Source: Myxococcota bacterium (GTDB taxonomy: Bacteria; Myxococcota_A; UBA796; UBA2385). From it: a DNA stretch of 62,999 nt. The stretch spans positions 1 through 62,999 of the forward strand of contig CAXQUZ010000359.1 of the NCBI GenBank assembly GCA_964226865.1, in the 5' to 3' direction. The translations under genes and the position numbers were made by a program. Position 1 is the stretch's first letter; each line of letters starts with the position of its first letter. Below, in pieces: positions 7,884-36,801 of the stretch. The notes under the pieces were generated by a model that saw nothing but the letters and a program-made list of their open reading frames with translations, was not told the origin of the DNA and made no database searches.

Positions 7884-9170
7884 ATGCGCATCGCCATCAT
7901 CGGGGCCGGGGTCGCCGGCCTCTCCGCTGCTGAGGCGCTGCGGCGCCGGGGCCACACCGATGTGGTCGTCTACGAGGCCCGCGACCAGGTCGGGGGCAAG
8001 GTCCGCACCAAGGTGGTGGACGGCCGGCCCTACGAGCTGGGCGCCTACATCAGCTTCGAGAGCGACGACGAGGTGGCGCGGCTGGTCGCCGACCACGGCC
8101 TGGCCCTGCGTCCGGCCCTGCCCCGCATGGTCCACGACCTCGACGCCGACGGCCAGCTCATCGACTTCGAGGCCTGGCAGGCCAAGCGCTACACCAAGGC
8201 CGAGACCGCGGCGGCGGCGGCCCGCTACCTGCTGCTCTGCGCCCGCCACCGCAAGATCTTCCGCCCCGGGGGCTACGCCGGTGCCGATCCCGCGCTGTTC
8301 CGGCGGGCCCACCGCTTCTTCGCCGCGCACGAGCTCGGGCCGGTGGCCTGGCTCTACCAGCCCATCATGGCGGGCCTCGGCTACGGCTTCTACGAGCAGA
8401 CCCCGGCCCTCTACGCCATGCGCTTCATCGACCCGGCCAAGCTGGCCGTGCTCGTGCGCACCTTGCTCGACCGCGACGCGAAGGTCGACATGGTCACGGC
8501 GGGCTTCCAGCGCCTCTGGGAGGCCGTCGCCCGGGACCACGACGTGCGGCTGGGCCACCGGGTGCAGGCCGTGCGCCGCGAGAAGCAGGGGCCGGGTCGC
8601 TGGCGCATCACCGTGACGGCCAACGGCCAGGACGAGGTCTACGACCGGCTCATCACGACGGTCTCCCGCTCCGAGATGGCCGACGTGCTCGACGCCACCG
8701 ACCGCGAGCGCCAGGTCTTCGGCGCCCTGCGCTTCAGCCCCTACGTCACGAGCATCTTCCGGGCCCGGGGCCTCGCCGAGGGCGTCACGGCCTACCTCGG
8801 CCAGCACTCGACCCCCGACACCCGCGGGCGGCTGATGATCTACTCCCAGCCCCACACCGACCGGGATCTCTTCCTGGGCTGGCAGCTCGGCCGAGAGGAC
8901 GAGGGGCCGGCGCTGGCGCAAGCCCTGCGCGAGGACGTGGCCAAGGTGGGCGGCGAGGTCACAGCGCTGGTCCACCAGGAGTTCTGGCCCGACTACTTCC
9001 CGCGGGTCGGCCGGAAGGCCCTCAAGGCCGGCCACTTCGACAAGCTGGCGAAGATGCAGGGCAAGCGGGGCACGTACTTCGCCGGGGCCATGGTCGACTA
9101 CGAGCTCACGGGCACGGCGGCGGCCTGGGCGACAACGCTGGTGGAGCGCCACTTCCCGCCCGCCTGCTGA
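7884..9170 (+). CDS. FAD/NAD(P)-binding amine-oxidase / desaturase-family oxidoreductase
   Basis: ATG at 7884 with GGGAGGG upstream. [16 protein letters not shown]...[13 protein letters not shown] is a Rossmann dinucleotide-binding motif. Confidence 0.85.
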
Positions 9171-9221
9171 GGGGACGCGGGCCGCCGCGCGGGTGCCGGG
9201 GGGTGGTCGCCGGGTCGCCAT

Positions 9222-9244
9222 TTCGTTATTCGTCGAACAACGAA
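9222..9244. promoter_or_regulatory. AT-rich imperfect inverted repeat, candidate ArsR operator
   Basis: TTCGTTATTCG-T-CGAACAACGAA has 11-bp arms with one mismatch. It is the only AT-rich patch in the 7884-11608 stretch and lies immediately upstream of arsR. Confidence 0.5.
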
Positions 9245-9265
9245 GTGCCGCACCCCGGAGCCCCT

Positions 9266-9622
9266 GTGTCCTCCTCTCCTTGCTGCCCGCCGGCGGCCTG
9301 CCTGCCTGCGCCCCCCGAGGGCACGGTGCCCGGGGGCGCGCCCGATGCGGTCGCTGACGCCCGGCTGGCCGCGCTCTGCAAGGCCCTCGCCCACCCCCAC
9401 CGGGTGCGCATCCTGCGGGTGCTCCGCGCCATGGGCAGCGACCGCTGCTACGCCGGCGACATCGCCGATCAGCTGCCCATCGCCGCCTCCACCGTCAGCC
9501 AGCACCTGCGCATCCTCCGCGACGCGGGGCTGATCCAGGGCGAGGTGGAGGGGCCCCGGCGCTGCTACTGCGTGGCCCCCGGGGCCCTCGCCGAGCTCCA
9601 GGCCGCCGTGGGGGCCCTGTGA
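9266..9622 (+). CDS. arsR: ArsR/SmtB-family metalloregulator
   Basis: Winged-helix core is [11 protein letters not shown]...[26 protein letters not shown] chose the GTG at 9266 (GGAG 5 nt upstream) so the operator stays outside the CDS. The track start at 9203 and the GTG at 9245 remain alternatives. The stop overlaps the acr3 start (GTGA at 9619-9622). Confidence 0.8.
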
Positions 9623-10740
9623 GCGCGGCCCCGGGCAGTGGGCCCCAAGATGTCGTGGCCGAGGACGTTGTCGACGGTGATGCCCTCGGCCTCTTCGGCC
9701 GCTACCTCTCGGTCTGGGTCGGTCTGTGCATCGCGGCGGGCGTGGGCCTCGGCGCCCTCGTGCCGGGGCTCTTTGCCGCCGTGGCCCAGGCCGAGCTGGC
9801 CTCGGTCAACCTCGTCGTGGCCGTGCTCATCTGGCTGATGATCGTGCCCATGATGATCCAGGTCGACCTGGGCCGTGTGCGCGACGTCGGCCGCCGGCCC
9901 ACGGGCCTCGTGCTGACCCTCGTGCTGAACTGGCTGGTGAAGCCCTTCTCGATGGCCCTGCTCGGGGCGCTGTTCTTCCGGGGGCTCTATGCGGGGCTGG
10001 TGACGCCTGGAGAGGCCGACGAGATCATCGCGGGCATGGTGCTGCTCGGCGTCGCCCCCTGCACGGCCATGGTCTTTGTCTGGAGCCAGCTCACCCGCGG
10101 CGACCCGAACTACACGCTGGTCCAGGTCTCGGTCAACGACCTCATCATGGTGGTCGCCTTCGCGCCCCTGGCCGGGCTGCTGCTCGGTGTGAGCGAAGTG
10201 GTCGTGCCCTGGGGCACGCTGGTGCTGTCGGTGGGCCTCTTCGTCGTGGTGCCGCTGGTGGCGGGGGCGGCCATCCGGCGCCGGCTGCTGGCCCAGGGCG
10301 CCGCCGCCGGCCAGGCCCCCGACGACCCCGCCGGCCCCCTGGCGCGGCTCACGGCCCGGCTCCAGCCGGTGGGCATCGTGGGCCTGCTCGCGACCATCGT
10401 GCTCATCTTCGGGCTCCAGGCCCCGACCATCCTCGCCCGGCCGGGGCTCATCGGGCTCATCGCCCTGCCCCTGCTGCTCCAGTCGGTCGGCATCTTCGCC
10501 CTCGCCTATGGCCTCGCCTGGCTGCTGCGGGTCCGCCACGCGGTGGCCGCCCCGGCCGCCATGATCGCCACCTCGAACTTCTTCGAGCTGGCCGTCGCCG
10601 TGGCCATCAGCCTCTTCGGCCTCGGCTCGGGGGCCGCCCTCGCGACGGTGGTGGGGGTGCTCATCGAGGTGCCCGTGATGCTCGCCTTCGTCGCCTTCGC
10701 CAACCGCACCCGGCCCGCCTTCGCGGCCCGCGCCGCCTGA
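9619..10740 (+). CDS. acr3: ACR3-family arsenite efflux permease
   Basis: [14 protein letters not shown]...[15 protein letters not shown]...[14 protein letters not shown]...[15 protein letters not shown] are typical Acr3 blocks. About 10 hydrophobic helices are present. Confidence 0.9.
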
Positions 10741-10747
10741 GGTCCCC

Positions 10748-11608
10748 ATGCGCTTCGACAGCGTTCTCTTCGTCTGTGTCGCCAACGCCGCCCGCAGCCA
10801 GCTCGCCGAGGCCCTGGCCCGCCACCGCTTCGGCGGGGCCGTGCGGGTGCAGTCCGCCGGCTCGGCCCCCGCGGCCCTCCACCCCCTCGCGACGGCCGCC
10901 CTCGCCGAGCACGGCCTGTCGACCGAGGGCCAGCACGCAAAGGGCCTCGACTCCATTGATCTGGACGAGGTCGACCTCATCGTCACCCTCTGCGCCGAGG
11001 CGGCCTGTCCCGTGCTGCCGCCGGGGGTGGCCCGGCTCGACTGGCCCCTGGCCGACCCGGCGGCGGCGGCCCCGGGAGAGGACGCGGGGGCCCGCATGGC
11101 GCGCTTCCGCCAGGCCCGCGCGGCCATCGACGCCCGCATCGCCGTGCTCGCCGCCCTCCGGGACGGGCCGCCGCCGCTGGCGCCCACCGAGTTCCACGCG
11201 AGCATCCGGGTGCCGGACCTGCCGGCGGCCGCGCGCTTCTACGCCTGGCTGCTCGGGGTGGCCCCCAAGACCTGGACCCACCGCTACGTCACCTTCGTGA
11301 GCCCGGCCCTGCGCACCAACCTCGTGCTGCTCGTCGACGACGGCCTCGAGCTGCACCACGACACCCTCTACCACGTCGGTGTCGAGCTCCCCGACCGGGC
11401 GGCGGTTGTGGCCGCCCACCACGCGGCCGCGGCGGCAGGCCTGCCGATCCACAAGCCGGCGCGCACGACCTGGCGCGGCACCCCCCTGCACGAGCTCTGG
11501 CTGCGCGACCCGGGCGGCAACCTCGTCGAGGTCTATGCCCGGCTCCGGCCGGCCGAGCGCGCGGAGATGCCGGCCGACCAGCAGCCGACCCTGCTGGTGG
11601 CGGGCTGA
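10748..11608 (+). CDS. arsC: LMW-PTP-type arsenate reductase fused to a C-terminal glyoxalase/VOC-fold domain
   Basis: The N-terminus has the CX5R(S) loop VCVANAARS plus TLCAEAACP. From about aa 145, FHASIRVPDLPAAARFYAWLLG...LYHVGVEL...GNLVEVY resembles a VOC (glyoxalase/bleomycin-resistance) fold. Confidence 0.85.
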   Translation: MRFDSVLFVCVANAARSQLAEALARHRFGGAVRVQSAGSAPAALHPLATAALAEHGLSTEGQHAKGLDSIDLDEVDLIVTLCAEAACPVLPPGVARLDWPLADPAAAAPGEDAGARMARFRQARAAIDARIAVLAALRDGPPPLAPTEFHASIRVPDLPAAARFYAWLLGVAPKTWTHRYVTFVSPALRTNLVLLVDDGLELHHDTLYHVGVELPDRAAVVAAHHAAAAAGLPIHKPARTTWRGTPLHELWLRDPGGNLVEVYARLRPAERAEMPADQQPTLLVAG

Positions 11609-11630
11609 GAGGCCGGGGGGCGGGCGCGCG

Positions 11631-13109
11631 TCAGAGTGTCTTCAAGAACGCGATGAGTGCGTCTTTGTCGGCCTCTTCCAGGGCCGTGCCCCAGGGGTGG
11701 CCCGCCGCCGACAGGCCCCGGCGCGTCGTGTCGACCACCCGGCGCCGGGCCCAGCTGTCGGGGGGCGTGCCGGGGGTCTCGGCGACCGTGCGCCAGCCCA
11801 CCCGCACCGGATCGTAGTCGGCGGCCGCCCAGCCCGTGCGCGACCAGGCCGCCGGCCGCTCGTCGGGCCGCAGCAGCGCCGAGAGGTCGGGCACGGTGCC
11901 GTTGTGGAGGTAGGGCGCTGTGGCCCAGACCCCCACCAGCGGCGGGGCCAGGTAGCCGCCGGTGGCCGTGACGGGGTGGGCGGCGCCGAACCAGCTGCCG
12001 TTGATCCAGGCCGCCTCGGCCTCGCCGAAGGCCCCGGCCCGGACGGGATCGGTGCCCACTTCGGCGAGCGGCACGACCCGGTCGGGGTGGTGGCGGTCGT
12101 CCGCGGGGCCACAGACCGTGCCGTGGCAGTCGGCACAGTGGGCGGCATAGACGGCGGCGCCGGCGTCGGCGGCCTCCGGCGCGGGCGGGTCGAAGGGCTA
12201 GGGCGGCACCGGGGTCTCTTGGATGGCCGCCCAGAGCTCGGCCAGCGCCGCGTCCTGGGCCTCGAGCTCGGCGGGGCTGTTGCCGAAGGCGAGCAGCATG
12301 GCGGCCATCGTGCGGTGGCCCGCGGCCTGGCCCTGGCCGTCGGCACAGACGCGGGTCTTGTGGGCGGCCTGCCACCAGGCCGCGGGCTGCTGGCCGCCGT
12401 AGTCGGTCTCGGGCGCCATGCCCTCGGGGCCCCAGGGCGCGGAGAAGGCCATGCCCAGGCCGTAGGCATCGGTGGTGCCGGCGGCGAGGGTGCGGTCGTC
12501 GAGGGAGAAGGGGAGGGCGACCGGGGGCAGCCCCACCGAGGCGGCCAGCGCAGCCAGGGCGACGAGGTCGTCGAAGAGCGACTGGAGGTCGACCCGGCTC
12601 GAGCCGGCGCCCACCACCACCGCGCCGGCGACGCCGTCGGCGTGGCAGATGAGGCAGTCGATCGAGGCCATGCTCCCGCTCAGGGCGGGCACCCCGAGAG
12701 CGTAGGGCCCGCCCGCCGGATCGGGCAGCAGGCCGTAGCGATCCTGGAAGGCGGCCTGGAAGGCGGCCGTGTCGGCGGGGCGGCCCGTGCCCCAGACCCA
12801 GTAGAGGTTGTCGAGGGCCACCCGGGGGATGAGCGGGGCCGAGAGCGCGCTGGTGGCGAGCAGGGCCCGGCCCGCCTCGGCCGCGGCGGGATCCACGGTG
12901 TGGAGGCGGGGCAGGCTGGGGCGGCAGGTGGCGCTGTCGGGGGCGGCGCTGTCGGGGGCGGCGCTGTCGGTCGCAGGGACACGGTCGCCGGATCCGCCCG
13001 GCTTGCCGGGGGCACAGGCGGCGAGGGCGAGGGCGAGCACGGGGCCCCCGGGGCCGGGGCGCAGGCGAGGGGACAGGGGGGCCTCCAGGGCGGAGCCCCA
13101 GCGTGGCAC
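11631..13109 (-). pseudogene. Di-haem cytochrome c (peroxidase-like) lipoprotein gene interrupted by one in-frame TAG at 12198-12200
   Basis: ORFs 12198..14057 and 11631..12074 share one frame. The stretch between them reads PFDPPAPEAADAGAAVYAAHCADCHG, the second CxxCH motif; the first is CLICH. The C-terminus ...ALIAFLKTL mirrors the paralogue at 25973..27748 (...ALIEFLKTL). The proposed GTG start at 13109 precedes LALALAAC. Confidence 0.7.
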
Positions 13110-21357: not shown

Positions 21358-21374
21358 TGGCCCGAAGCTTGCAT
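21358..21374 (+). promoter_or_regulatory. Candidate sigma-54 (-24/-12) promoter
   Basis: TGGCCC-GAAGC-TTGCAT compares with consensus TGGCAC-N5-TTGCA and has correct GG-N10-GC spacing. It lies 65 nt upstream of the ATG at 21439. Confidence 0.4.
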
Positions 21375-21438: not shown

Positions 21439-23292
21439 ATGATGAACTACCTTGTGTGGCTGGCGGCGTTCAGCCTCCTGGTCGCGGTCTTCGAGCGACT
21501 GTGGCCCGCCCGCCCCCAGAAGGTGCTGCGGCGCTGGCTGTGGTCCGACGCCATCCACCTCGTCTTCAACGGCCACGTGCTCGGGCTGCTGCTCTACGGC
21601 ATCGCCTGGTACCGCGTGCTGCCGGTGCTGGACGGCTGGCTGGCCGAGCAGGGCCTGTCGGGCATGGTCTACCGGAACGCCGTCTCGGGCTGGGGCATCG
21701 TGCTCCAGAGCATCGTCGCACTGGTTGTTCTCGACTTTGTCCAGTGGCTCGTCCACAACAGCCTGCACCGCATCGGCCCGCTCTGGCGCATCCACCAGGT
21801 CCACCACTCCGTCAAGGACGGCGAGATGGACTGGATCGTGTCCTTCCGCTTCAGCTGGCTCGAGCCCGTCTACTACAAGGCCGCGATGTACCTGCCGGCC
21901 GCGTGGTTCGGCTTCGCTCCCGAGGCCCTCTTCTTCCACGCCGTCTTCGGCACCCTCATCGGCCACCTCAACCACGCCAACCTGACCTGGGACTACGGCC
22001 CGCTGCGCTACGTCTTCAACTCGCCGCGCATGCACCTCTACCACCACGACTGGGAGGCGCCGGCCACCGGCCAGAACTTCGGCATCACCCTGAGCTGCTG
22101 GGACTGGATCTTCGGCACGGCCCACCTGCCCGACCAGCCGCCCGCCAAGATCGGCTTCCCCGGTGTCGAGAAGCTGCCCGAGGACTTCTTCGGCCAGCTC
22201 ATCTGGCCCCTGCCCCTGGCGGCGAAGGGGCTCCAGGGCACGAAGGTCTCGGCCAGCGTCGCCGGCGTGGGGGTGCTGGGCCTGCTCTACAGCCTGAGCC
22301 TGGCCCCGAGCGTCGACACCCCGATGTTCGGCGAGCCCGCCGCCAGCTCCCAGCCCGCCGTCTCTCCCGACGTGGCCCCCGTGGCCCACGCCGCCACCCC
22401 CGCCGAGGCCACCGCCGCCCTCGGGCGCTTCGGCACGGCCGCCCGCGCCGCAGGCTGGGCCGCCCCCGAGGTCGCCGTGACCGCCCGCGAGCTCGCCGAG
22501 GCCCTGGGCAGCGAGCGGCTCGTGGTGCTCGACGTGCGCACCGAAGACCGCTTCGCCGAGGGCCACATCCCCTCCGCCCAGCTCGTCACCCGCGGCGACT
22601 ACTCGGGCGGCGAGGTGCCCGGGGTGTCGAGGTCCCGGGACGAGCTCCAGGCCCTGCTGCGGGCGAAGGGCGTCGACGACGACTCGGTGGTGGTGCTGCT
22701 CGGCGACGGCGGCCCCGAGCCCTACCGCCTGTGGTGGACCCTGGCCCAGGTCGGTGGCTTCGAGACGCGTGTCCTCGACGGTGGTCTCGCCGCCTGGAAG
22801 GCCCTCGGGGAGCGCCTCGCCGAGGGCCCCGGCCGCGCGGTCGAGGCCGGCACGGTCACCCTCGCCGGTGGGCCGGCCCGCAACCTCATGTGGGCCGAGG
22901 TCGAGGCCCTCCGGGCCCGCCACCCCGACCTCCAGCTCGTCGACACCCGCGGCGCCCCCGAGTTCACCGGCGAGGAGCAGCACCGCAAGGCGGCCCGTGC
23001 CGGCCACAGCCCCGGCGCCCGCCACCTCGACTGGAAGGCCGTGCTGCGCCTCGAGGGCGACGCCCCCGTGCTGCGAGATCCGGCCGACGCCCGGGCGGTC
23101 TTCGCGGCGGCGGGCATCGACCCGGCGCGGCCCGTGCTGACCTACTGCCAGAGCGGCACCCGCAGCTCGACGGTCTACTACAGCCTGCTCCAGCTCGGCG
23201 CCGACATGGAGGCCGTGGCCAACTACGACGGCAGCTGGGCCGAGTACAGCCGCCTCGAGGCCCTGCCCGTGGCCATGGGCCCGAACGGGTGA
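21439..23292 (+). CDS. Fusion: membrane fatty-acid-hydroxylase/sterol-desaturase-family di-iron domain + tandem rhodanese (sulfurtransferase) domains
   Basis: ATG at 21439. The His boxes are HNSLH, HQVHH and HLYHH, set in a hydrophobic N-terminal half. The C-terminal half has two rhodanese modules, with the active-site loop CQSGTRS in the second. Confidence 0.85.
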   Translation: MMNYLVWLAAFSLLVAVFERLWPARPQKVLRRWLWSDAIHLVFNGHVLGLLLYGIAWYRVLPVLDGWLAEQGLSGMVYRNAVSGWGIVLQSIVALVVLDFVQWLVHNSLHRIGPLWRIHQVHHSVKDGEMDWIVSFRFSWLEPVYYKAAMYLPAAWFGFAPEALFFHAVFGTLIGHLNHANLTWDYGPLRYVFNSPRMHLYHHDWEAPATGQNFGITLSCWDWIFGTAHLPDQPPAKIGFPGVEKLPEDFFGQLIWPLPLAAKGLQGTKVSASVAGVGVLGLLYSLSLAPSVDTPMFGEPAASSQPAVSPDVAPVAHAATPAEATAALGRFGTAARAAGWAAPEVAVTARELAEALGSERLVVLDVRTEDRFAEGHIPSAQLVTRGDYSGGEVPGVSRSRDELQALLRAKGVDDDSVVVLLGDGGPEPYRLWWTLAQVGGFETRVLDGGLAAWKALGERLAEGPGRAVEAGTVTLAGGPARNLMWAEVEALRARHPDLQLVDTRGAPEFTGEEQHRKAARAGHSPGARHLDWKAVLRLEGDAPVLRDPADARAVFAAAGIDPARPVLTYCQSGTRSSTVYYSLLQLGADMEAVANYDGSWAEYSRLEALPVAMGPNG

Positions 23293-24350
23293 GGCCGGGC
23301 CTGCCGCTGCAGCGGGGAGGGCGCGGCCGCTCCCGTCGCCTCTCCGTCCTGCGCCGCGGCGGGCGCGGTGCCCTGCTCGCCCTCGGGCTCGGGGGCTGCG
23401 CGGCCCCGGCGGTGGCGCCGTCCGGTCCGGCCGCCGACGGGGTCTCGCTCGGCCTCTTCGCGACGGATGCCTTCTACGACTATGGCCCGATGGTCGAGGA
23501 GATCGCCGAGCTGGGGGCGGGCTCGCTGCTCGTGGTGGTGCCCCGGCGGCTCGACCACTCCCAGGCCAGCGCCCCCGTGCTCGCCGTGCCCCCGCCCACC
23601 CTCGACCGCACCCTGCGCCAGGCCCGGGTCCAGGGCCTCGAGACCACGGTGATGCCGGTCATCGACCTGGTCCAGCGGGCCCACGCGGGCGACTGGCGCG
23701 GCCGTCTCGCCCCCGCCGCCCCCGATCGCTTCTGGTCGGCCTACGGCGCCGCCCTCGACCGGGTGGCCGTGGTGGCCGAGGGCGCCGGCGCCGACCGCCT
23801 CGTGGTGGGCTCCGAGCTGTCGAGCCTCGAGGCCGAGGCCGAGCGCTGGTCGGCGCTCATCTCCGGCCTCCGCGACCGCTTCGGCGGCCGCCTCACCTAC
23901 TCGGCCAACTGGGACCACCACGCGGCCGTGCCCTTCTGGGGCGCGCTCGACGAGGTGGGGGTCACCGCCTACCACCCCGTCGACGGCGCCGATCCGGCCG
24001 CGGCCTGGTCCGAGGCCCTCGCCGCCGCCGCCGCCACGGCTGCCGAGAACGACCGTCCCCTCGTCATCACCGAGTACGGCTACCCCGCCCTGGGCTCGGC
24101 TGCGGCCCGCCCCTGGGACGAGACCACCGGCGCCCCCGCCGACGACGCGCTCCAGGCCGCGCTCTACGGCGTCGCCCTCGCGGCCCTCGCCTGCGCCCGG
24201 CCCCAGGCGGCCTTCGCCTGGAACTGGTTCGGCCACCCCGCCGACCCCGCCAGCCCCTTCTCCCCGCGCGGTCGTCCCGCAGCCGCCGTGCTGCGCGACC
24301 ACTTCGCCACCGCACCGGCGCAGCGCTGCGCCCCCCCGGAGTCCCGATGA
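23289..24350 (+). CDS. Lipoprotein, TIM-barrel glycoside-hydrolase-like
   Basis: The GTG at 23289 overlaps the upstream stop (GTGA). The lipobox is LALGLGGC. SELSS...SANWDH...ITEYGYP resembles clan GH-A catalytic strands. The function call is tentative. Confidence 0.65.
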   Translation: MRPGLPLQRGGRGRSRRLSVLRRGGRGALLALGLGGCAAPAVAPSGPAADGVSLGLFATDAFYDYGPMVEEIAELGAGSLLVVVPRRLDHSQASAPVLAVPPPTLDRTLRQARVQGLETTVMPVIDLVQRAHAGDWRGRLAPAAPDRFWSAYGAALDRVAVVAEGAGADRLVVGSELSSLEAEAERWSALISGLRDRFGGRLTYSANWDHHAAVPFWGALDEVGVTAYHPVDGADPAAAWSEALAAAAATAAENDRPLVITEYGYPALGSAAARPWDETTGAPADDALQAALYGVALAALACARPQAAFAWNWFGHPADPASPFSPRGRPAAAVLRDHFATAPAQRCAPPESR

Positions 24351-25933
24351 AGCCGCCCGCCACCCCGGCCGATCCCGCCCGCCGCCTCTTCCTCCGCCGC
24401 GTCGCCCAGGTCGCCGGCGCCTCGGCCCTGGCCGCCTGCACCCCGCGGGCCCCGGGGGTGGCCGACGCCGCCCCGTCCGTCGCCCCGACCCTGCCCCCGC
24501 CCCCCGGCGACGCGGGCCCCGCCGGACTTCCCGACGGCCTCGACCGCACCCACTTCCACGTCCACAACGAGGGCCCCCTGTCGCTCGAGACCCGCCGCGG
24601 GGCCCACGGCCGCGGGCTGCTCACCCCGAACGACCGCTTCTTCGTGCGCAACAACCTGCCCCGGCCGGCCGCGAGCATCCTCGACGACCGCGACGCCTGG
24701 GCCGTGGCCTTCGAGGGGGTGGCCAAGCCCCGCACGGTCACCCTCGCCGAGCTCAAGACCCTCGGCGTCGCCACCGAGGCGGTCACCCTCCAGTGCTCGG
24801 GCAATGGCCGCGCCTTCTTCGCCCACGGCCCCTCGGGCTCGCCTTGGGCCACGGGGGCCGCGGGCTGCGCCATCTGGACGGGGGTGCGGCTGCGGGATGT
24901 CTGGGCCCACCTCGGCGGGGTGCTGCCGGAGGCCCGCTATCTGACCGCGACCGGCGGTGAGCTGCTGCCCGAGGGCGTCGACCGCGACACGGTGGTGGTC
25001 GAGCGCAGCGTGCCCGTCGAGAAGGGGCTGGCCGACGCGCTGCTCGCCTGGGAGATGAACGGCGCGCCCATCCCGCTCACCCACGGCGGCCCCCTGCGGC
25101 TCATCGTGCCCGGCTACTTCGGCGTGAACCACATCAAGTACGTGCGCCGCATCGGGGCGACCGTCGACCAGACCAATGCCAAGATCCAGAAGAAGGGCTA
25201 CCGCTTCCGTCCCATCGGCGAGGGCAGCAGCGACACCCACCCCTCGATGTGGCGCATGCCCGTGAAGTCGTGGCTCAACGGCCCGGGCACGGACGGCCAC
25301 ACCGTGCCGGCGGGCAAGGTCGTCTTCTACGGGGTCGCCCTGTCGGGCGAGCGCGGCGTCGAGTCGGTCGAGGTCTCGGTGGACGGCGGCGAGACCTGGG
25401 CCCCGGCCACCCTCGAGGGCCCCTCCCTCGGGCCCAACGCCTGGCGGGCCTTCTCGTTCTCGACCACCCTCGCCGAGGGCCGCCACACCCTCCACACCCG
25501 CGCCACCGACACGGCGGGCGAGCAGCAGCCCCGGGACCGGGTCGAGAACGAGCGGGGCTACGGCCACAACGGCTGGCTCGACCACGGGCTCGCCGTCGTC
25601 GTCACGGCCACCCGGGAGGCCCTGCCCGAGGAGCCGGCCGCGGCCGTCCCGGCGGGGCCCAAGGGGCCGGTCACCCTCTCGGAGGCGGGCGAGCGGGGCA
25701 AGGAGGTCTTCCTGGCCCAGGCCGAGCCCAGCTGTGGTGTCTGCCACACCCTCGCCGACGCGGGCACGAAGGGGGCCGTCGGGCCCAACCTCGACGCCCT
25801 CGCCCCCGAGCTCGGCCGGGTCGAGTCGGCGGTCACCAACGGCGTCGGCGCCAGGCCGGGCTTCGGCGGCCGCCTCCGCCCCGAGCAGATCCGCGACGTG
25901 GCGACCTATGTGGCCGAGTCGACCGGCGGCTGA
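24347..25933 (+). CDS. Sulfite-oxidase-family molybdoenzyme (SorA-like) fused to a C-terminal mono-haem cytochrome c
   Basis: The ATG at 24347 overlaps the upstream stop (ATGA). The Tat-like signal is RRLFLRRVAQVAGASALA. The Mo-ligand Cys block is TLQCSGNGR. A dimerisation region is present, and CGVCH lies in the last ~90 aa. Confidence 0.85.
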   Translation: MKPPATPADPARRLFLRRVAQVAGASALAACTPRAPGVADAAPSVAPTLPPPPGDAGPAGLPDGLDRTHFHVHNEGPLSLETRRGAHGRGLLTPNDRFFVRNNLPRPAASILDDRDAWAVAFEGVAKPRTVTLAELKTLGVATEAVTLQCSGNGRAFFAHGPSGSPWATGAAGCAIWTGVRLRDVWAHLGGVLPEARYLTATGGELLPEGVDRDTVVVERSVPVEKGLADALLAWEMNGAPIPLTHGGPLRLIVPGYFGVNHIKYVRRIGATVDQTNAKIQKKGYRFRPIGEGSSDTHPSMWRMPVKSWLNGPGTDGHTVPAGKVVFYGVALSGERGVESVEVSVDGGETWAPATLEGPSLGPNAWRAFSFSTTLAEGRHTLHTRATDTAGEQQPRDRVENERGYGHNGWLDHGLAVVVTATREALPEEPAAAVPAGPKGPVTLSEAGERGKEVFLAQAEPSCGVCHTLADAGTKGAVGPNLDALAPELGRVESAVTNGVGARPGFGGRLRPEQIRDVATYVAESTGG

Positions 25934-25972: not shown

Positions 25973-27748
25973 CTACAGTGTCTTGAGGAACTCGATGAGG
26001 GCCATGCTCTCGTCCTCGTCGAGGTCGTCGAGCATCTCGTCGTGGCCGGCCGGGGACTGGCCGGGGCCGCCGAGGGTGACGTGGGCCTCGGTGTCGTCGA
26101 GCCAGGCCTCCGGGATGGCCGCGCCCGTGGGGTAGCCGACGCAGGCCGCGTCGAAGTCGGTCTCGGGGTCGTCGGCGGGGCCCTGGACGTAGAAGGCCGT
26201 GCGCTCGGCGGGCGGGCGCAGCACGTCGCAGAGGGTGGGGGCGGCGTTGTTGTGGAAGTAGGGGTAGCGGGCCCAGATGCCGTCGAGGGGCGGCGGCACG
26301 TAGCCGGCCTCGCTGGCGTCGACGGTGGTCTGCATCCACTGGGAGACGGCGAGGGCGTTGAGGGCCTCGAGGTCGACCATGCCCGTGGCGCGGCCGCTGT
26401 CGGTGCCCACGTCGACCCGGGGGGTCTGGGGGTGGTAGCGCACGGCCGTGGTCGCGAGGCGGTCTGCCGGGCTGCGCGCGTCGGCGTCGTCGGCGTCCCA
26501 GCCCTTGTCGTAGCTGCCGTGGCAGCGGGCGCAGCGGGCCTCGAAGGCGAGCTGGCCCGCCTGGGCCCGGTCTTCGTCGATGCTCTCGGCGCCGAAGAAG
26601 TCGGTCCAGCGGGGGGCCTCGGTGGCGAAGACCGTGACCGTGAGCTCGTCGACGACCCGCATGCCCGCGTCGCTCTCGAGCCAGGCCTGGAGCGCGGGCA
26701 GGTCGGCGCCCCGGCCGAGCTCGTTCCAGAGGAAGTTGGTGAGGATGGGGTTGCCCGCGACGATGCTGCCGTCCGAGAGCCAGCGCGTCTTGTGCTTCAT
26801 CGTCCACCAGGGCATCGGCTTGGAGTCGCCGACCACCTCGTCGAGCACCAGCGCGCGGGGGCTGGCCTCGAGGCCGGCGTCGAAGCTGGCGTCGGCGTCG
26901 TCCCGGCGGCGGGCGAGGCTGCCGGCGACCTGGGCGAGGCTGGTGTCGAGGCCCAGCGCCACGGGGGGCAGGGTGCCCACGGCGCCGAGGGCCGCGATGG
27001 TCTCTTCGTACATGGCGCGCTCGCCGTCGGTGGCGTCGGTGAGCTGCTGGAAGGTGTCGCCGTCGAGGGTCGAGAGGGCCGTGGCCGCCACGTGGAAGAG
27101 CGCGTTGGGCCGGGGACGCTTGTTCTGGAGCCCGACGACGGGGGTGCCGAAGAGGGTGCCGACGTGGCAGGCGGCGCAGGAGAAGGTGAGGCCGAGGCCC
27201 TGGTCGGTCTCGAGCCAGGTGGCGCCCATGGGGTCGCCCGGGCCCTGGCCGGGGGGCGGCGGGGCCCAGGTCGGGTCGCCGGGGTGGTCGGGGTCGGGGG
27301 GCACGGCCGCTGCGGCGGGCCCGTCGGGGAAGCGGGACAGGCCCATGCGCGCGTACATGCCGTCCTCGTCGCTGAAGCCGGTCGTGGCCTCGAGCACCTG
27401 GCGCACCACCTCGGCGTCCGGATCGGTGAAGACGTTGCGCAGGGCGCCGAGCGGCAGCAGCATGCGGGTCGTGGGCACGGGCCAGTGGAAGACATGCTGG
27501 AGGCCGGCGGCGCGGGCCGTGGCGAGGTCGTCGGCGCTGAGCCCGTAGATGTTGGCACGGCCCTCGCCGGGGGTCACCGTGGCCCCGGCCGACCAGTCGG
27601 CGGCCTCCCGGTCGCAGACGCCGTCGCCGTCCATGTCGAGGCCCGCCGTGCAGCCGGCCTCGGGGGCGCCCGTGTCGTCGGGGACGTCGTCGCCGGGGGC
27701 CTTGCCGCCGCTGTGGCAGCCGACGAGGAGGAGCAGAGACGTGACCAT
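25973..27748 (-). CDS. Di-haem cytochrome c (peroxidase-like) lipoprotein, intact paralogue of 11631..13109
   Basis: ATG at 27748 with GGGAGG upstream. The lipobox is LLLLVGC. The two haem motifs are CAACH and CARCH. The C-terminus is ...MALIEFLKTL. Confidence 0.85.
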   Translation of the reverse strand: MVTSLLLLVGCHSGGKAPGDDVPDDTGAPEAGCTAGLDMDGDGVCDREAADWSAGATVTPGEGRANIYGLSADDLATARAAGLQHVFHWPVPTTRMLLPLGALRNVFTDPDAEVVRQVLEATTGFSDEDGMYARMGLSRFPDGPAAAAVPPDPDHPGDPTWAPPPPGQGPGDPMGATWLETDQGLGLTFSCAACHVGTLFGTPVVGLQNKRPRPNALFHVAATALSTLDGDTFQQLTDATDGERAMYEETIAALGAVGTLPPVALGLDTSLAQVAGSLARRRDDADASFDAGLEASPRALVLDEVVGDSKPMPWWTMKHKTRWLSDGSIVAGNPILTNFLWNELGRGADLPALQAWLESDAGMRVVDELTVTVFATEAPRWTDFFGAESIDEDRAQAGQLAFEARCARCHGSYDKGWDADDADARSPADRLATTAVRYHPQTPRVDVGTDSGRATGMVDLEALNALAVSQWMQTTVDASEAGYVPPPLDGIWARYPYFHNNAAPTLCDVLRPPAERTAFYVQGPADDPETDFDAACVGYPTGAAIPEAWLDDTEAHVTLGGPGQSPAGHDEMLDDLDEDESMALIEFLKTL

Positions 27749-35214: not shown

Positions 35215-36801
35215 TCAGGGCGCGACCGCGACCTCCCCGTGGCAGGTGGTCACCGAGCAGTAGAAGGCGGTGCCGGTGATCGTGGCGGCCGCGGCCGTGG
35301 TGTCGCCGCGGCGGGCGAAGAGGGCGAGGTCGGGGGCCGCGCTGCATGCCGCGATCGGGCTGGTCGCGGCGACGGCGGCCCCGGCGGCCTGGCAGCCGGC
35401 GAAGGACAGGGCCCCCGACCCGGCGATGGCCGCGGTGGCGCCGCCCGTGTCGGCCCAGTTGTCGTCCCAGGCAGACACGAGCCCGGTCTCCTGGCCAAAG
35501 CAGCTCAGGTTGCCCTCGGTGTAGACGGCGCCGCCGGCGTCGGCCCGGTTGGCCGTGGCCCCGAGCCCCGTGACGAAGCTGTCGGTGCCGGGCCCCAGGT
35601 AGAGTCCGCCGCCGTAGCGGTTGCCCCAGTTGTCGTGGAGCGAGACCGCCCGGGCGTCGAGCCGGAAGCCGCTGCCGTAGAAGGCCAGGCCCCCGCCGGT
35701 GGCCGCGCGGTTGCTCTCGAAGTCCACCGAGACCATGCGCAGGCCCGAGAACTCGACCAGGGCGCCGCCGCCTGCGGTGTCGTCCCCGCCAGTGTTGTGG
35801 GCGAGGCGGCTGTCGGCCAGCTCGAGCGGGCCCACGCTGCCGGCGTAGAGACCGGCGCCCCCCACCGAGCCGGCGCTGGCGTGGTTGCCCGTGATGACCA
35901 GGGCCGAGAGCTCGGCGCTGGCGAGGCCCGAGAGGTGGAGGCCCCCCCCGGGCACGGTGGCGGTGGTGACGCCGCCGGTGAGCACGAGGCCCGAGAGCAC
36001 GGCCCGGCCGCCCGTGCCCGAGAGCTGGACGGTGGGGCCGGCGGTGGTGGAGGCGGCGCCGTTGAGCACGGGCCAGGTGTCGGCGGCGGCGAGCCGGTCG
36101 GTGTCTCCGGTGTCTCCGGTGTCTCCGGAGTCGGTGGAGTCGGCGGAGTCGGCGGAGTCGGCGGAGTCGGGAGGGACGCCGGTGTCGCCGGAGTCGAGGG
36201 GCACGGCACGGCCGATGATGTGGAGCGCGGCCACGTCGCCCTGGACGATGCGCACCCGGTAGGGGGCGGCGCCGCGGCAGATGTCGAGGCGGCCGGCGGC
36301 GGCGAGCTCGACCCGGACGGGGGCGTCGCGGCTGTCGGTCGGGAAGTCGGCGCTGCGGTCGACGGGCGCGCCGCCGTCCGGGGTCCAGGTCACGACGCCC
36401 AGCTCGTCGGCGGGCTGCCAGCCGGGGCGGCAGCCGTCGTTGCGTCCGTTGCAGCGCTCGGTCTGGCCGGGGAAGACGGCGGGATCGGTGTCGTCGCAGT
36501 CGCCGGTGGTGGCGACCCAGCCGACCTGGCAGGCCCCGGCGGCCACCCCGCCGACGCCGTCCCCGTCCGCGTCGGGGGCGAGGCCCTCGTCCCGCTCGCC
36601 GTCGCAGTCGTTGTCGAGGCCGTCGCAGCGCTCGGGGGCGCCGGGGTGGACCGTGGCCCGGCGGTCGTCGCAGTCGTCGAGAACGCTGAACCCATCGTTG
36701 TCGTCGTCGACTCTTGCCCGCTGGTCTTCGGCGGTGATGAAGACACAGCCCGGCAGCAGCGTGGCGCCCAGCAGGGCCGCCCTGGCGGGGCGGCTCAGCA
36801 C
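35215..36801 (-). CDS. Lipoprotein: two MopE-type Cys-rich repeats, acidic DSAD/DTGD repeats, Gly-rich beta-helix-like repeats, Cys-rich C-terminus
   Basis: The GTG at 36801 overlaps the upstream stop (GTGCTGA). The lipobox is ATLLPGC. CDDRRATVHPGAPERCDGLDNDCDG is a MopE-type repeat. Recurring GGG(L/A)x motifs (GGGLHLSG, GGAGLYAG, GGGALVEF, GGGLAFYG, GGGLYLGP, GGAVYTEG) suggest a parallel beta-helix. Confidence 0.8.
   Translation of the reverse strand: MLSRPARAALLGATLLPGCVFITAEDQRARVDDDNDGFSVLDDCDDRRATVHPGAPERCDGLDNDCDGERDEGLAPDADGDGVGGVAAGACQVGWVATTGDCDDTDPAVFPGQTERCNGRNDGCRPGWQPADELGVVTWTPDGGAPVDRSADFPTDSRDAPVRVELAAAGRLDICRGAAPYRVRIVQGDVAALHIIGRAVPLDSGDTGVPPDSADSADSADSTDSGDTGDTGDTDRLAAADTWPVLNGAASTTAGPTVQLSGTGGRAVLSGLVLTGGVTTATVPGGGLHLSGLASAELSALVITGNHASAGSVGGAGLYAGSVGPLELADSRLAHNTGGDDTAGGGALVEFSGLRMVSVDFESNRAATGGGLAFYGSGFRLDARAVSLHDNWGNRYGGGLYLGPGTDSFVTGLGATANRADAGGAVYTEGNLSCFGQETGLVSAWDDNWADTGGATAAIAGSGALSFAGCQAAGAAVAATSPIAACSAAPDLALFARRGDTTAAAATITGTAFYCSVTTCHGEVAVAP
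36101..36172. repeat. Two adjoining 9-bp tandem repeat blocks (gtgtctccg x3; gagtcggcg-like x5) encoding DSADSADSADSTDSGDTGDTGDT
   Basis: Read directly from the sequence. The blocks are in-frame within CDS 35215..36801. Confidence 0.9.

Follow-up and report, generated by a model that had tools for sequence, protein, structure and literature searches.

A candidate periplasmic sulfur-oxidation operon of Myxococcota that joins a membrane hydroxylase, a tandem rhodanese and a sulfite dehydrogenase

The closest described relatives of the sulfite dehydrogenase examined here are SorT and SorU of Sinorhizobium meliloti, separate proteins that are encoded in one operon and form a transient complex (eLife 2015, PMC4760952); fused SorT-SorU forms are not mentioned in that paper. 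Such a fused form is encoded by the last of three co-oriented genes at positions 21439-25933 (plus strand) of a 62,999-nucleotide stretch of DNA from a Myxococcota bacterium (contig CAXQUZ010000359.1 of assembly GCA_964226865.1), referred to below as the window. The first gene of the three joins a di-iron membrane domain of the fatty-acid hydroxylase/sterol desaturase superfamily to a tandem rhodanese, and the second encodes a lipoprotein of the glycoside hydrolase family GH113. We propose, with a probability of about 0.6, that this operon specifies a sulfur-oxidation module at the periplasmic face of the inner membrane, in which the transfer of thiosulfate or sulfane sulfur would be coupled to the oxidation of sulfite.

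Gene 3 shares with S. meliloti SorT/SorU the export by twin-arginine translocation (Tat), the predicted periplasmic location and sequence alignments to both proteins; it differs from them in being a single polypeptide, in the lipobox cysteine that follows its Tat signal and in an arginine, Arg503, in its cytochrome part. SorAB of Starkeya novella (2blf) is likewise a molybdenum enzyme of the periplasm with a c-type cytochrome as electron acceptor, but it consists of two subunits, whereas the cytochrome of gene 3 is fused and of the SorU type, and gene 3 falls outside the SorAB family. The rhodanese part of gene 1 has the features of RhdA (1e0c), SseA (1urh) and YnjE (2wlr), namely a two-domain fold with an inactive N-terminal domain and the catalytic cysteine loop in the C-terminal one. 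Of these three, RhdA and SseA are located in the cytoplasm and YnjE is a soluble periplasmic protein; in gene 1, by contrast, an added helix connects the rhodanese to a polytopic membrane oxygenase. The hydroxylase part has the histidine-box motifs, the PF04116 match and the four-helix core of its superfamily (for example OlsE); additional helices at its N-terminal and C-terminal ends and a recurrent association with genes for sulfur oxidation set it apart. Gene 2 resembles the GH113 beta-mannanases AaManA (3civ/4cd6) and BaMan113A (7dv7) in its TIM barrel, in both catalytic glutamates and in a Pfam score above the gathering cut-off; unlike them, it is a lipoprotein, only about 20% identical, and a member of a Myxococcota subfamily.

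Genes for sulfur oxidation in members of this phylum have been described recently. Metagenomics of marine sediments (2025) found that heterotrophic Myxococcota carry sulfur-oxidation genes, PDO and SorA-type among them, and SorA-type sequences were assigned only to Myxococcota in the data set of that study (PMC12345210); the present operon is not described there. In the literature that was searched we found no description of a hydroxylase-rhodanese pairing, of GH113 beside sulfur genes or a rhodanese, or of this operon.

The three products and their predicted location

The three genes are linked by start/stop overlaps that couple their translation: a GTGA at 23289-23292, which holds the GTG start of gene 2, and an ATGA at 24347-24350, which contains the start codon of gene 3. 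The starts at 21439 and 23289 match the N-termini of homologues (MMNYL... and MR[AP]GLP..., respectively).

In gene 1, Pfam recognised FA_hydroxylase (PF04116) at residues 92-227, with 88.4 bits against a cut-off of 31, and two matches to the rhodanese domain (PF00581; 97 bits). The hydroxylase part carries the histidine boxes HNSLH (106-110), HQVHH (119-123), HLNH (176-179) and HLYHH (199-203), in which H106, H110, H119, H122, H123, H176, H179, H199, H202 and H203 are invariant among 29 homologues of 52-89% identity. The rhodanese loop CQSGTRS (570-576), Cys570 included, is invariant in the same 29 proteins, and the arrangement is that of a tandem rhodanese, with two domains and the catalytic cysteine in a six-residue loop of the C-terminal one. 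This part is nearest to the thiosulfate sulfurtransferases (RhdA and the Thermus rhodanese), and its best solved relative is RhdA of A. vinelandii (E = 4e-23, aligned over both domains); for the hydroxylase domain, sequence searches returned no relative of solved structure. Against the equivalog families of SseA (NF008557) and of the ornithine lipid hydroxylase OlsE (NF052566), gene 1 scored 84.6 and 84 bits, below the respective cut-offs of 250 and 475.

The AlphaFold2 model of gene 1, with an overall predicted local distance difference test score (pLDDT) of 84, has helices at residues 2-21, 34-70, 87-111, 141-157, 161-178 and 269-287, and its rhodanese region (320-617) is confidently modelled (pLDDT >90). 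The last of these helices is an additional sixth membrane helix (TM6), with a hydropathy peak of 1.77. It is present in all in-group proteins of the hydroxylase tree described below, those consisting of the hydroxylase only included, and absent from the three remote homologues that were aligned and from P0368, the reversed-order fusion described below. Five Lys/Arg residues lie in the loop 20-37, and TM6 has Lys before it and Asp/Glu after it. Because of the charge of the 20-37 loop, the positive-inside rule would place the N-terminus outside and the histidine boxes in the cytoplasm, where the other members of this superfamily have theirs, with the rhodanese carried into the periplasm by TM6. 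Between TM6 and the rhodaneses, residues 292-312 are disordered in the model (pLDDT <50). Despite this disorder, a motif directly after TM6, TPMFGEPAASSQP (residues 294-306; window 22318-22356), is near-invariant in the fused homologues, T294, P295, E299, A302, S304 and P306 being invariant in the alignment of the 29; it could be a docking or processing site.

The product of gene 3 begins with a Tat motif (RRLFLRR, residues 12-18) followed by a lipobox cysteine, Cys31 (ALAAC), and contains the motifs QCSGNGR and CGVCH, the latter a CxxCH haem site. Its residues 71-419 (24557-25603) scored 502 bits against the NCBIfam SorT family (NF052247, equivalog cut-off 570), and residues 451-522 (25697-25912) scored 93 bits against SorU (NF052248, cut-off 100). 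SorT is by far the best family for this protein, SorA reaching only 194 bits. Comparison with solved structures gave a similar result: 372 bits over 343 residues for SorT (4pw3), with an identical LQCSGNGR molybdenum-cysteine motif, 68 bits for SorU (4pw9_B) and 151 bits for SorA (2blf). Homologues from Myxococcota or unnamed metagenome assemblies keep a cysteine after the Tat signal, and two that are named for cultured gammaproteobacteria are without it. SorT-cytochrome fusions are themselves common, since molybdopterin, dimerisation and cytochrome domains occur together in nearly all of the best 120 of 3512 matches; among the listed matches, the fusions named for Microbulbifer and Pseudohongiella are encoded by a gene standing alone in unrelated contexts.

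One residue sets the gene 3 cytochrome apart. Arg503 (AGG, 25853-25855) stands where 17 of 17 aligned homologues have the Met of GVGAMP, which we take to be the axial haem ligand, as in class I cytochromes c. AGG and ATG differ by one base, and Arg503 may be either a real variant that alters the haem site or a consensus error of the metagenome-assembled genome (MAG).

Gene 2 matched Pfam GH113 (PF22612) with 79.7 bits against a gathering cut-off of 27 and has a lipobox, LGLGGC, with Cys37. Two glutamates, E176 (in GSEL) and E262 (in TEYG), are invariant in 24 homologues. The family profile matched AaManA (4cd6) with E = 1e-40, and GSEL and TEYG align with GCEM and MEVG, whose glutamates we take, from the published enzyme, to be the catalytic pair of AaManA. 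In the AlphaFold2 model (pLDDT 87), the top 15 Foldseek matches were all GH113 proteins, with TM-scores of 0.7-0.8. Because the GH113 fold and both conserved glutamates are present, gene 2 looks like an active clan GH-A glycosidase. The cassette-linked branch of its subfamily sits between the rhodanese and the sulfite dehydrogenase. Paralogues outside the cassette (at most 40% identical) were considered as a clue to the substrate and set aside, their neighbours being unrelated (NAD kinase, a SPOR protein, a metallo-beta-lactamase (MBL) fold protein and a tRNA synthetase).

Given TM6 on gene 1, the lipobox on gene 2 and the Tat signal with lipobox on gene 3, all three products would be anchored to the membrane on its periplasmic side. 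A first-pass annotation, made by a model from the letters of the window without database searches, had described the three overlapping genes and their motifs, and all of these were found where it had placed them. Its assignments of gene 1 as a hydroxylase fused to tandem rhodaneses, of gene 2 as a TIM-barrel glycoside-hydrolase-like lipoprotein and of gene 3 as a Tat-exported molybdoenzyme of the sulfite oxidase family with a C-terminal cytochrome c agree with the Pfam domains and recurrence of gene 1, with the Pfam, profile and Foldseek assignment of gene 2 to GH113 and with the SorT and SorU matches of gene 3. It had called both fusions unusual: this holds for the hydroxylase-rhodanese fusion, which is real and undescribed in the literature searched, and not for the common SorT-cytochrome fusion. 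It had taken SorAB as the classical counterpart of gene 3, for which SorT/SorU of Sinorhizobium is the better fit. TM6 had escaped it, and this helix should put the rhodanese in the periplasm together with the other two proteins.

Recurrence, loss and reversal of the cassette

The full-length fusion of PF04116 and PF00581 was found in at least 120 protein clusters from many sources, which where named belong to Myxococcota, Polyangiales or Sandaracinus. A scan of species-representative genomes found it in 39 species genomes, nearly all from Myxococcota. Of 401 genomes sampled evenly from this phylum, 20 carried the fused gene; among these, GH113 lay on the fusion contig in 18, was truncated on another contig in one and lay elsewhere in one. 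Gene order was counted over the loci from the 39 species genomes that had enough flanking DNA. GH113 lies directly 3' of the fusion gene in 30 of 33 informative loci. Of 25 loci informative for a sulfite dehydrogenase, 24 have one adjoining and one has none. The dehydrogenase is SorT::SorU, placed after GH113, in 18 of the 25 loci and an adjoining SorA type instead in six, once with a SorB-like cytochrome. Since the dehydrogenase is replaced by one of a different type, this pattern argues that sulfite oxidation would be the selected partner function.

Recurrence in dozens of species genomes puts the fusion and its gene order far beyond chance. An assembly, binning or frameshift artefact might have been feared in a source genome that is a fragmented MAG (786 contigs, 88% complete, 7% contamination), and the first-pass annotation had named the fusion junction as a place where genes separate in relatives might have been joined. 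This explanation is refuted: the fusion is uninterrupted in the at least 120 independent clusters and in the 39 species genomes, from many studies and with conserved gene order, and a split frame occurs only in one nanopore-derived locus, L058. The junction is therefore genuine. The taxonomic search proposed there traced the fusion through the 39 genomes, the neighbouring genes proved to be co-conserved, and the suggested link between rhodanese and sulfite oxidation is borne out by genes that are conserved, gained and lost together and by a dehydrogenase that can be swapped for the SorA type. In L058 itself (7968-9843), hydroxylase and rhodanese lie in overlapping frames; the split is probably a sequencing frameshift and not a natural one.

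Clustering of the neighbouring genes revealed that loci with the cassette and loci lacking it share their flanking genes, and DNA alignments showed a clean insertion/deletion of 3.6-3.8 kb between close relatives in two genomic contexts. L066 and L057 lack the stretch that occupies positions 8904-12521 of locus L054, and the sequences on either side are about 85-90% identical. In a different genomic context, L061 lacks the corresponding stretch of L042, and L060 lacks that of L072. Each time the missing stretch extends from just past TM6 to just past the SorT::SorU stop, so that the linker, the rhodaneses, GH113 and SorT::SorU are removed together. The remaining hydroxylase-only proteins keep TM6 and all histidine boxes. 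L066 retains a decayed remnant of the linker motif, which indicates that the absence arose by deletion. In a tree of the hydroxylase domain the in-group forms one clade (Shimodaira-Hasegawa-like approximate likelihood ratio test support 96), and hydroxylase-only forms are nested within the fused clade at no fewer than four well-supported places. Taken together, the alignments and the tree show that the block behaves as an accessory unit, lost repeatedly, which is always joined to the predicted periplasmic end of a resident hydroxylase of one subfamily.

A version in reversed order was found by an exhaustive search of representative proteins. P0368 (603 aa) consists of a signal peptide, two rhodanese domains (loop CHSGVRSS) and then FA_hydroxylase, and its hydroxylase domain is 37% identical to that of gene 1, including the N-out first helix. 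Of ten scanned proteins with two matching stretches it is the only true reversed fusion, the other nine being four-domain rhodaneses without a hydroxylase. A metagenome scan returned at least 580 related stretches. SorA-like and SorB-like genes adjoin the rhodanese::hydroxylase fusion, or tightly adjacent separate genes for its two parts, in about 20 of about 25 informative metagenome loci, among which three arrangements were seen. L137, L165 and L166 have a separate rhodanese gene followed by the hydroxylase gene, with a gap of 3-10 nt or an 11-nt overlap; between the same flanks, SorA, SorB and the rhodanese part are present in L125, whereas L174, L173 and L160 have only the hydroxylase. Two clusters of the reversed version are named for Flavobacteriales and Cryomorphaceae. 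Its G+C content is 0.30-0.47 in most loci, as against 0.75 here (about 75% over the window), and a tree of both versions together separates them into two well-supported clades.

The reversed-order operons resemble the Myxococcota operon in a periplasmic tandem rhodanese with a C-x-S-G-x-R-S loop, in a hydroxylase of the same broad subfamily, in an adjacent sulfite dehydrogenase with cytochrome c and in the presence or absence of the block beside a resident hydroxylase. Unlike it, they have the order signal peptide-rhodanese-hydroxylase, which needs no sixth helix, and their partner is a SorA-like enzyme with a separate SorB-like cytochrome in place of SorT::SorU. Both designs would put the rhodanese at a periplasmic end of the membrane protein, at the N-terminus directly or at the C-terminus through the added helix, and this agreement supports the topology model.

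A further layout was observed in genome G030 (L015, 6261-8733), where SorT::SorU lies directly upstream of a hydroxylase-only gene that keeps TM6, and genes for a rhodanese and for GH113 are absent. The locus ties the hydroxylase to a sulfite dehydrogenase by a third arrangement.

These observations bear on the idea that the hydroxylase is a mere anchor or neighbour, and that the rhodanese and SorT::SorU, with or without GH113, form a self-sufficient periplasmic module for thiosulfate and sulfite. The clean deletion of the block on several occasions with the hydroxylase and its histidine boxes left intact would fit this idea, as would catalytic sites on opposite faces of the membrane and the common occurrence of hydroxylase-only relatives. 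The recurrence in reversed order weakens it, since two distant lineages, with opposite domain orders, combine the same hydroxylase subfamily with a rhodanese and a sulfite dehydrogenase. Where rhodanese and hydroxylase are separate genes (L137, L165 and L166), the hydroxylase is still kept within the few nucleotides given above, and in G030 SorT::SorU stands next to a hydroxylase-only gene. A purely anchoring role thus seems to us unlikely, though it deserves to be taken seriously.

The composition of the block also bears on a breakdown of sulfoglycolipids or organosulfonates, in which GH113 would cut off the sugar head, the hydroxylase would oxygenate the lipid or the C-S carbon and so free sulfite, and SorT::SorU would oxidise it. 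SorT of S. meliloti serves organosulfonate degradation, and such a pathway would occupy all parts of the operon, including the apparently active glycosidase and the lipid-type oxygenase, save the rhodanese, which is given no role. GH113 moves with the rhodanese and SorT::SorU block and not with the hydroxylase, it was not found beside the reversed-order version, and clustering of neighbouring genes showed no transporter or sulfatase that is consistently linked. We therefore regard this pathway as highly improbable.

The surroundings of the cassette at one locus, L082, point to inorganic sulfur oxidation. Its neighbours there encode a rhodanese, a TsdA/SoxA-type cytochrome, two proteins of the MBL fold, of which one carries a fused rhodanese, the halves of a YeeE-type transporter and SulP. 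Homologues of these sulfur genes are present on other contigs of the genome to which the window belongs; SoxB was not found in that genome, which is 88% complete. Such a context speaks against detoxification of cyanide, in which the rhodanese would turn cyanide and thiosulfate into thiocyanate and sulfite and SorT::SorU would remove the toxic sulfite. Such a role would suit the gene 1 rhodanese, whose nearest relatives form the thiosulfate:cyanide sulfurtransferase group (RhdA and the Thermus rhodanese), and a sulfite-removing partner in 24 of 25 informative loci would suit a sulfite by-product. None of the contexts examined showed cyanide-related genes, however, and the hydroxylase and GH113 would be left without explanation, which makes this function very unlikely.

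Promoter and neighbouring genes

The coordinates of the operon and of its candidate promoter are collected in Table 1. The promoter candidate is of the sigma-54 type; its pattern, TGGC-N7-TTGCW, matched twice in the whole window, against 0.36 matches expected. The three closest relatives (L019-L021) have TGGCAC or TGGCAT-N5-TTGCT just upstream of the gene 1 homologue, and the motif is missing in most other clades (a match within 300 nt upstream in 5 of 45 loci). The operon probably starts from this candidate promoter in the window's own subclade, as judged from these motif matches. Its interior was scanned and showed no sigma-70-like promoter and no convincing terminator. The only other match to the pattern in the window, TGGCCGCGCGGTTGCT at 35700-35715 (plus strand), lies within a caspase-lipoprotein cluster.

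Table 1. Positions in the window of the operon, the parts of gene 1 and the candidate promoter
Feature	Positions	Strand	Length, content or distance	Basis
Gene 1	21439..23292	+	617 aa; FA_hydroxylase and two rhodanese domains	Pfam
Gene 1, residues 1-268: di-iron membrane domain of the FA-hydroxylase family	21439..22242	+	TM1-TM5, His boxes	PF04116
Gene 1, residues 269-288: extra sixth membrane helix (TM6)	22243..22302	+		Hydropathy, AlphaFold2
Gene 1, residues 289-345: Ala/Pro-rich flexible linker	22303..22473	+	Conserved motif TPMFGEPAASSQP	pLDDT, homologue alignment
Gene 1, residues 346-617: tandem rhodanese	22474..23292	+	Catalytic Cys570 (codon 23146-23148)	PF00581, two matches
Gene 2: GH113-family (clan GH-A) lipoprotein	23289..24350	+	353 aa	Pfam GH113
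Gene 3: SorT::SorU fused sulfite dehydrogenase	24347..25933	+	528 aa	NCBIfam SorT, SorU
Sigma-54-type promoter candidate	21358..21373	+	TGGCCC-N5-TTGCA; 65 nt upstream of gene 1	

Two neighbours of the operon or of its relatives were considered as members and rejected. A gene that converges on gene 3 (25973-27748, minus strand) encodes a RoxA-like di-haem protein of the cytochrome c peroxidase type (NCBIfam CytoC_perox, 97 bits) and ends 40 bp from the gene 3 stop; it is not conserved beside the cassette in relatives. In one clade (L042, L044, L047, L060, L061 and L072), the hydroxylase gene is preceded by a conserved run of genes for an arylsulfatase-like protein, a class III alcohol dehydrogenase (FrmA-like) and an MBL-fold hydrolase, and this run is present with or without the sulfur block. 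An MBL-fold gene upstream of the hydroxylase, also found with hydroxylase-only genes, was treated as resident context and not counted in the block.

Proposed route of sulfur oxidation and its significance

In the module that we propose, the tethered rhodanese, working on the outer side of the inner membrane, would take sulfane sulfur from thiosulfate or another sulfane carrier and free sulfite, which SorT would oxidise to sulfate at once, and the electrons would pass via the built-in SorU haem to the respiratory chain. The hydroxylase would act as a functional partner or platform, more than an anchor, and GH113 would be an accessory seen only with the Myxococcota version. The first-pass annotation had rightly left it open how the hydroxylase and the glycosidase fit a simple sulfite scheme.

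Several points weigh against this proposal. Because the di-iron site and the rhodanese are predicted to face opposite sides of the membrane, a direct hand-over of substrate between them is hard to picture. The hydroxylase has been kept where the block was repeatedly lost, and so has a function of its own. How GH113 would take part in sulfur chemistry is not obvious; it is missing in a few Myxococcota loci (L046 and L049), and none was found beside the reversed-order version in the informative metagenome loci. The SorT and SorU scores of gene 3 lie just under the NCBIfam equivalog cut-offs, and the copy with Arg503 may transfer electrons poorly, or may reflect a wrong base call. Finally, all carriers found are MAGs or metagenome contigs.

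A more far-reaching role can be envisaged for the hydroxylase-like di-iron protein, namely as a catalytic part of an undescribed, oxygen-dependent pathway of sulfur oxidation that would occur in at least two bacterial phyla. The tethered rhodanese might supply it with membrane-soluble sulfane or elemental sulfur for oxygenation, or its product might be a lipid-bound sulfur carrier; completing the oxidation to sulfate would then fall to the attached sulfite dehydrogenase. We hold this role to be improbable; if it were true, a member of the 'sterol desaturase' family would gain a role in inorganic sulfur metabolism.

The component enzymes of the operon are of known kinds, and the Myxococcota version is new by its inverted domain order, its added helix, its GH113 gene and its SorT::SorU partner. 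The part that calls for explanation is the recurrent coupling of these enzymes to a membrane protein of the 'sterol desaturase' type. Natural pairs of genomes with and without the block make the link between hydroxylase and sulfur directly testable. As proposed here, the operon would encode a compact pathway, tethered to the membrane, in which thiosulfate or sulfane sulfur is converted via sulfite to sulfate; its reversed-order counterpart is widespread in metagenome contigs. The joining of oxygenase and rhodanese in opposite orders in two phyla is a clue of the Rosetta-stone type to an unrecognised link of the oxygenase family to sulfur metabolism.

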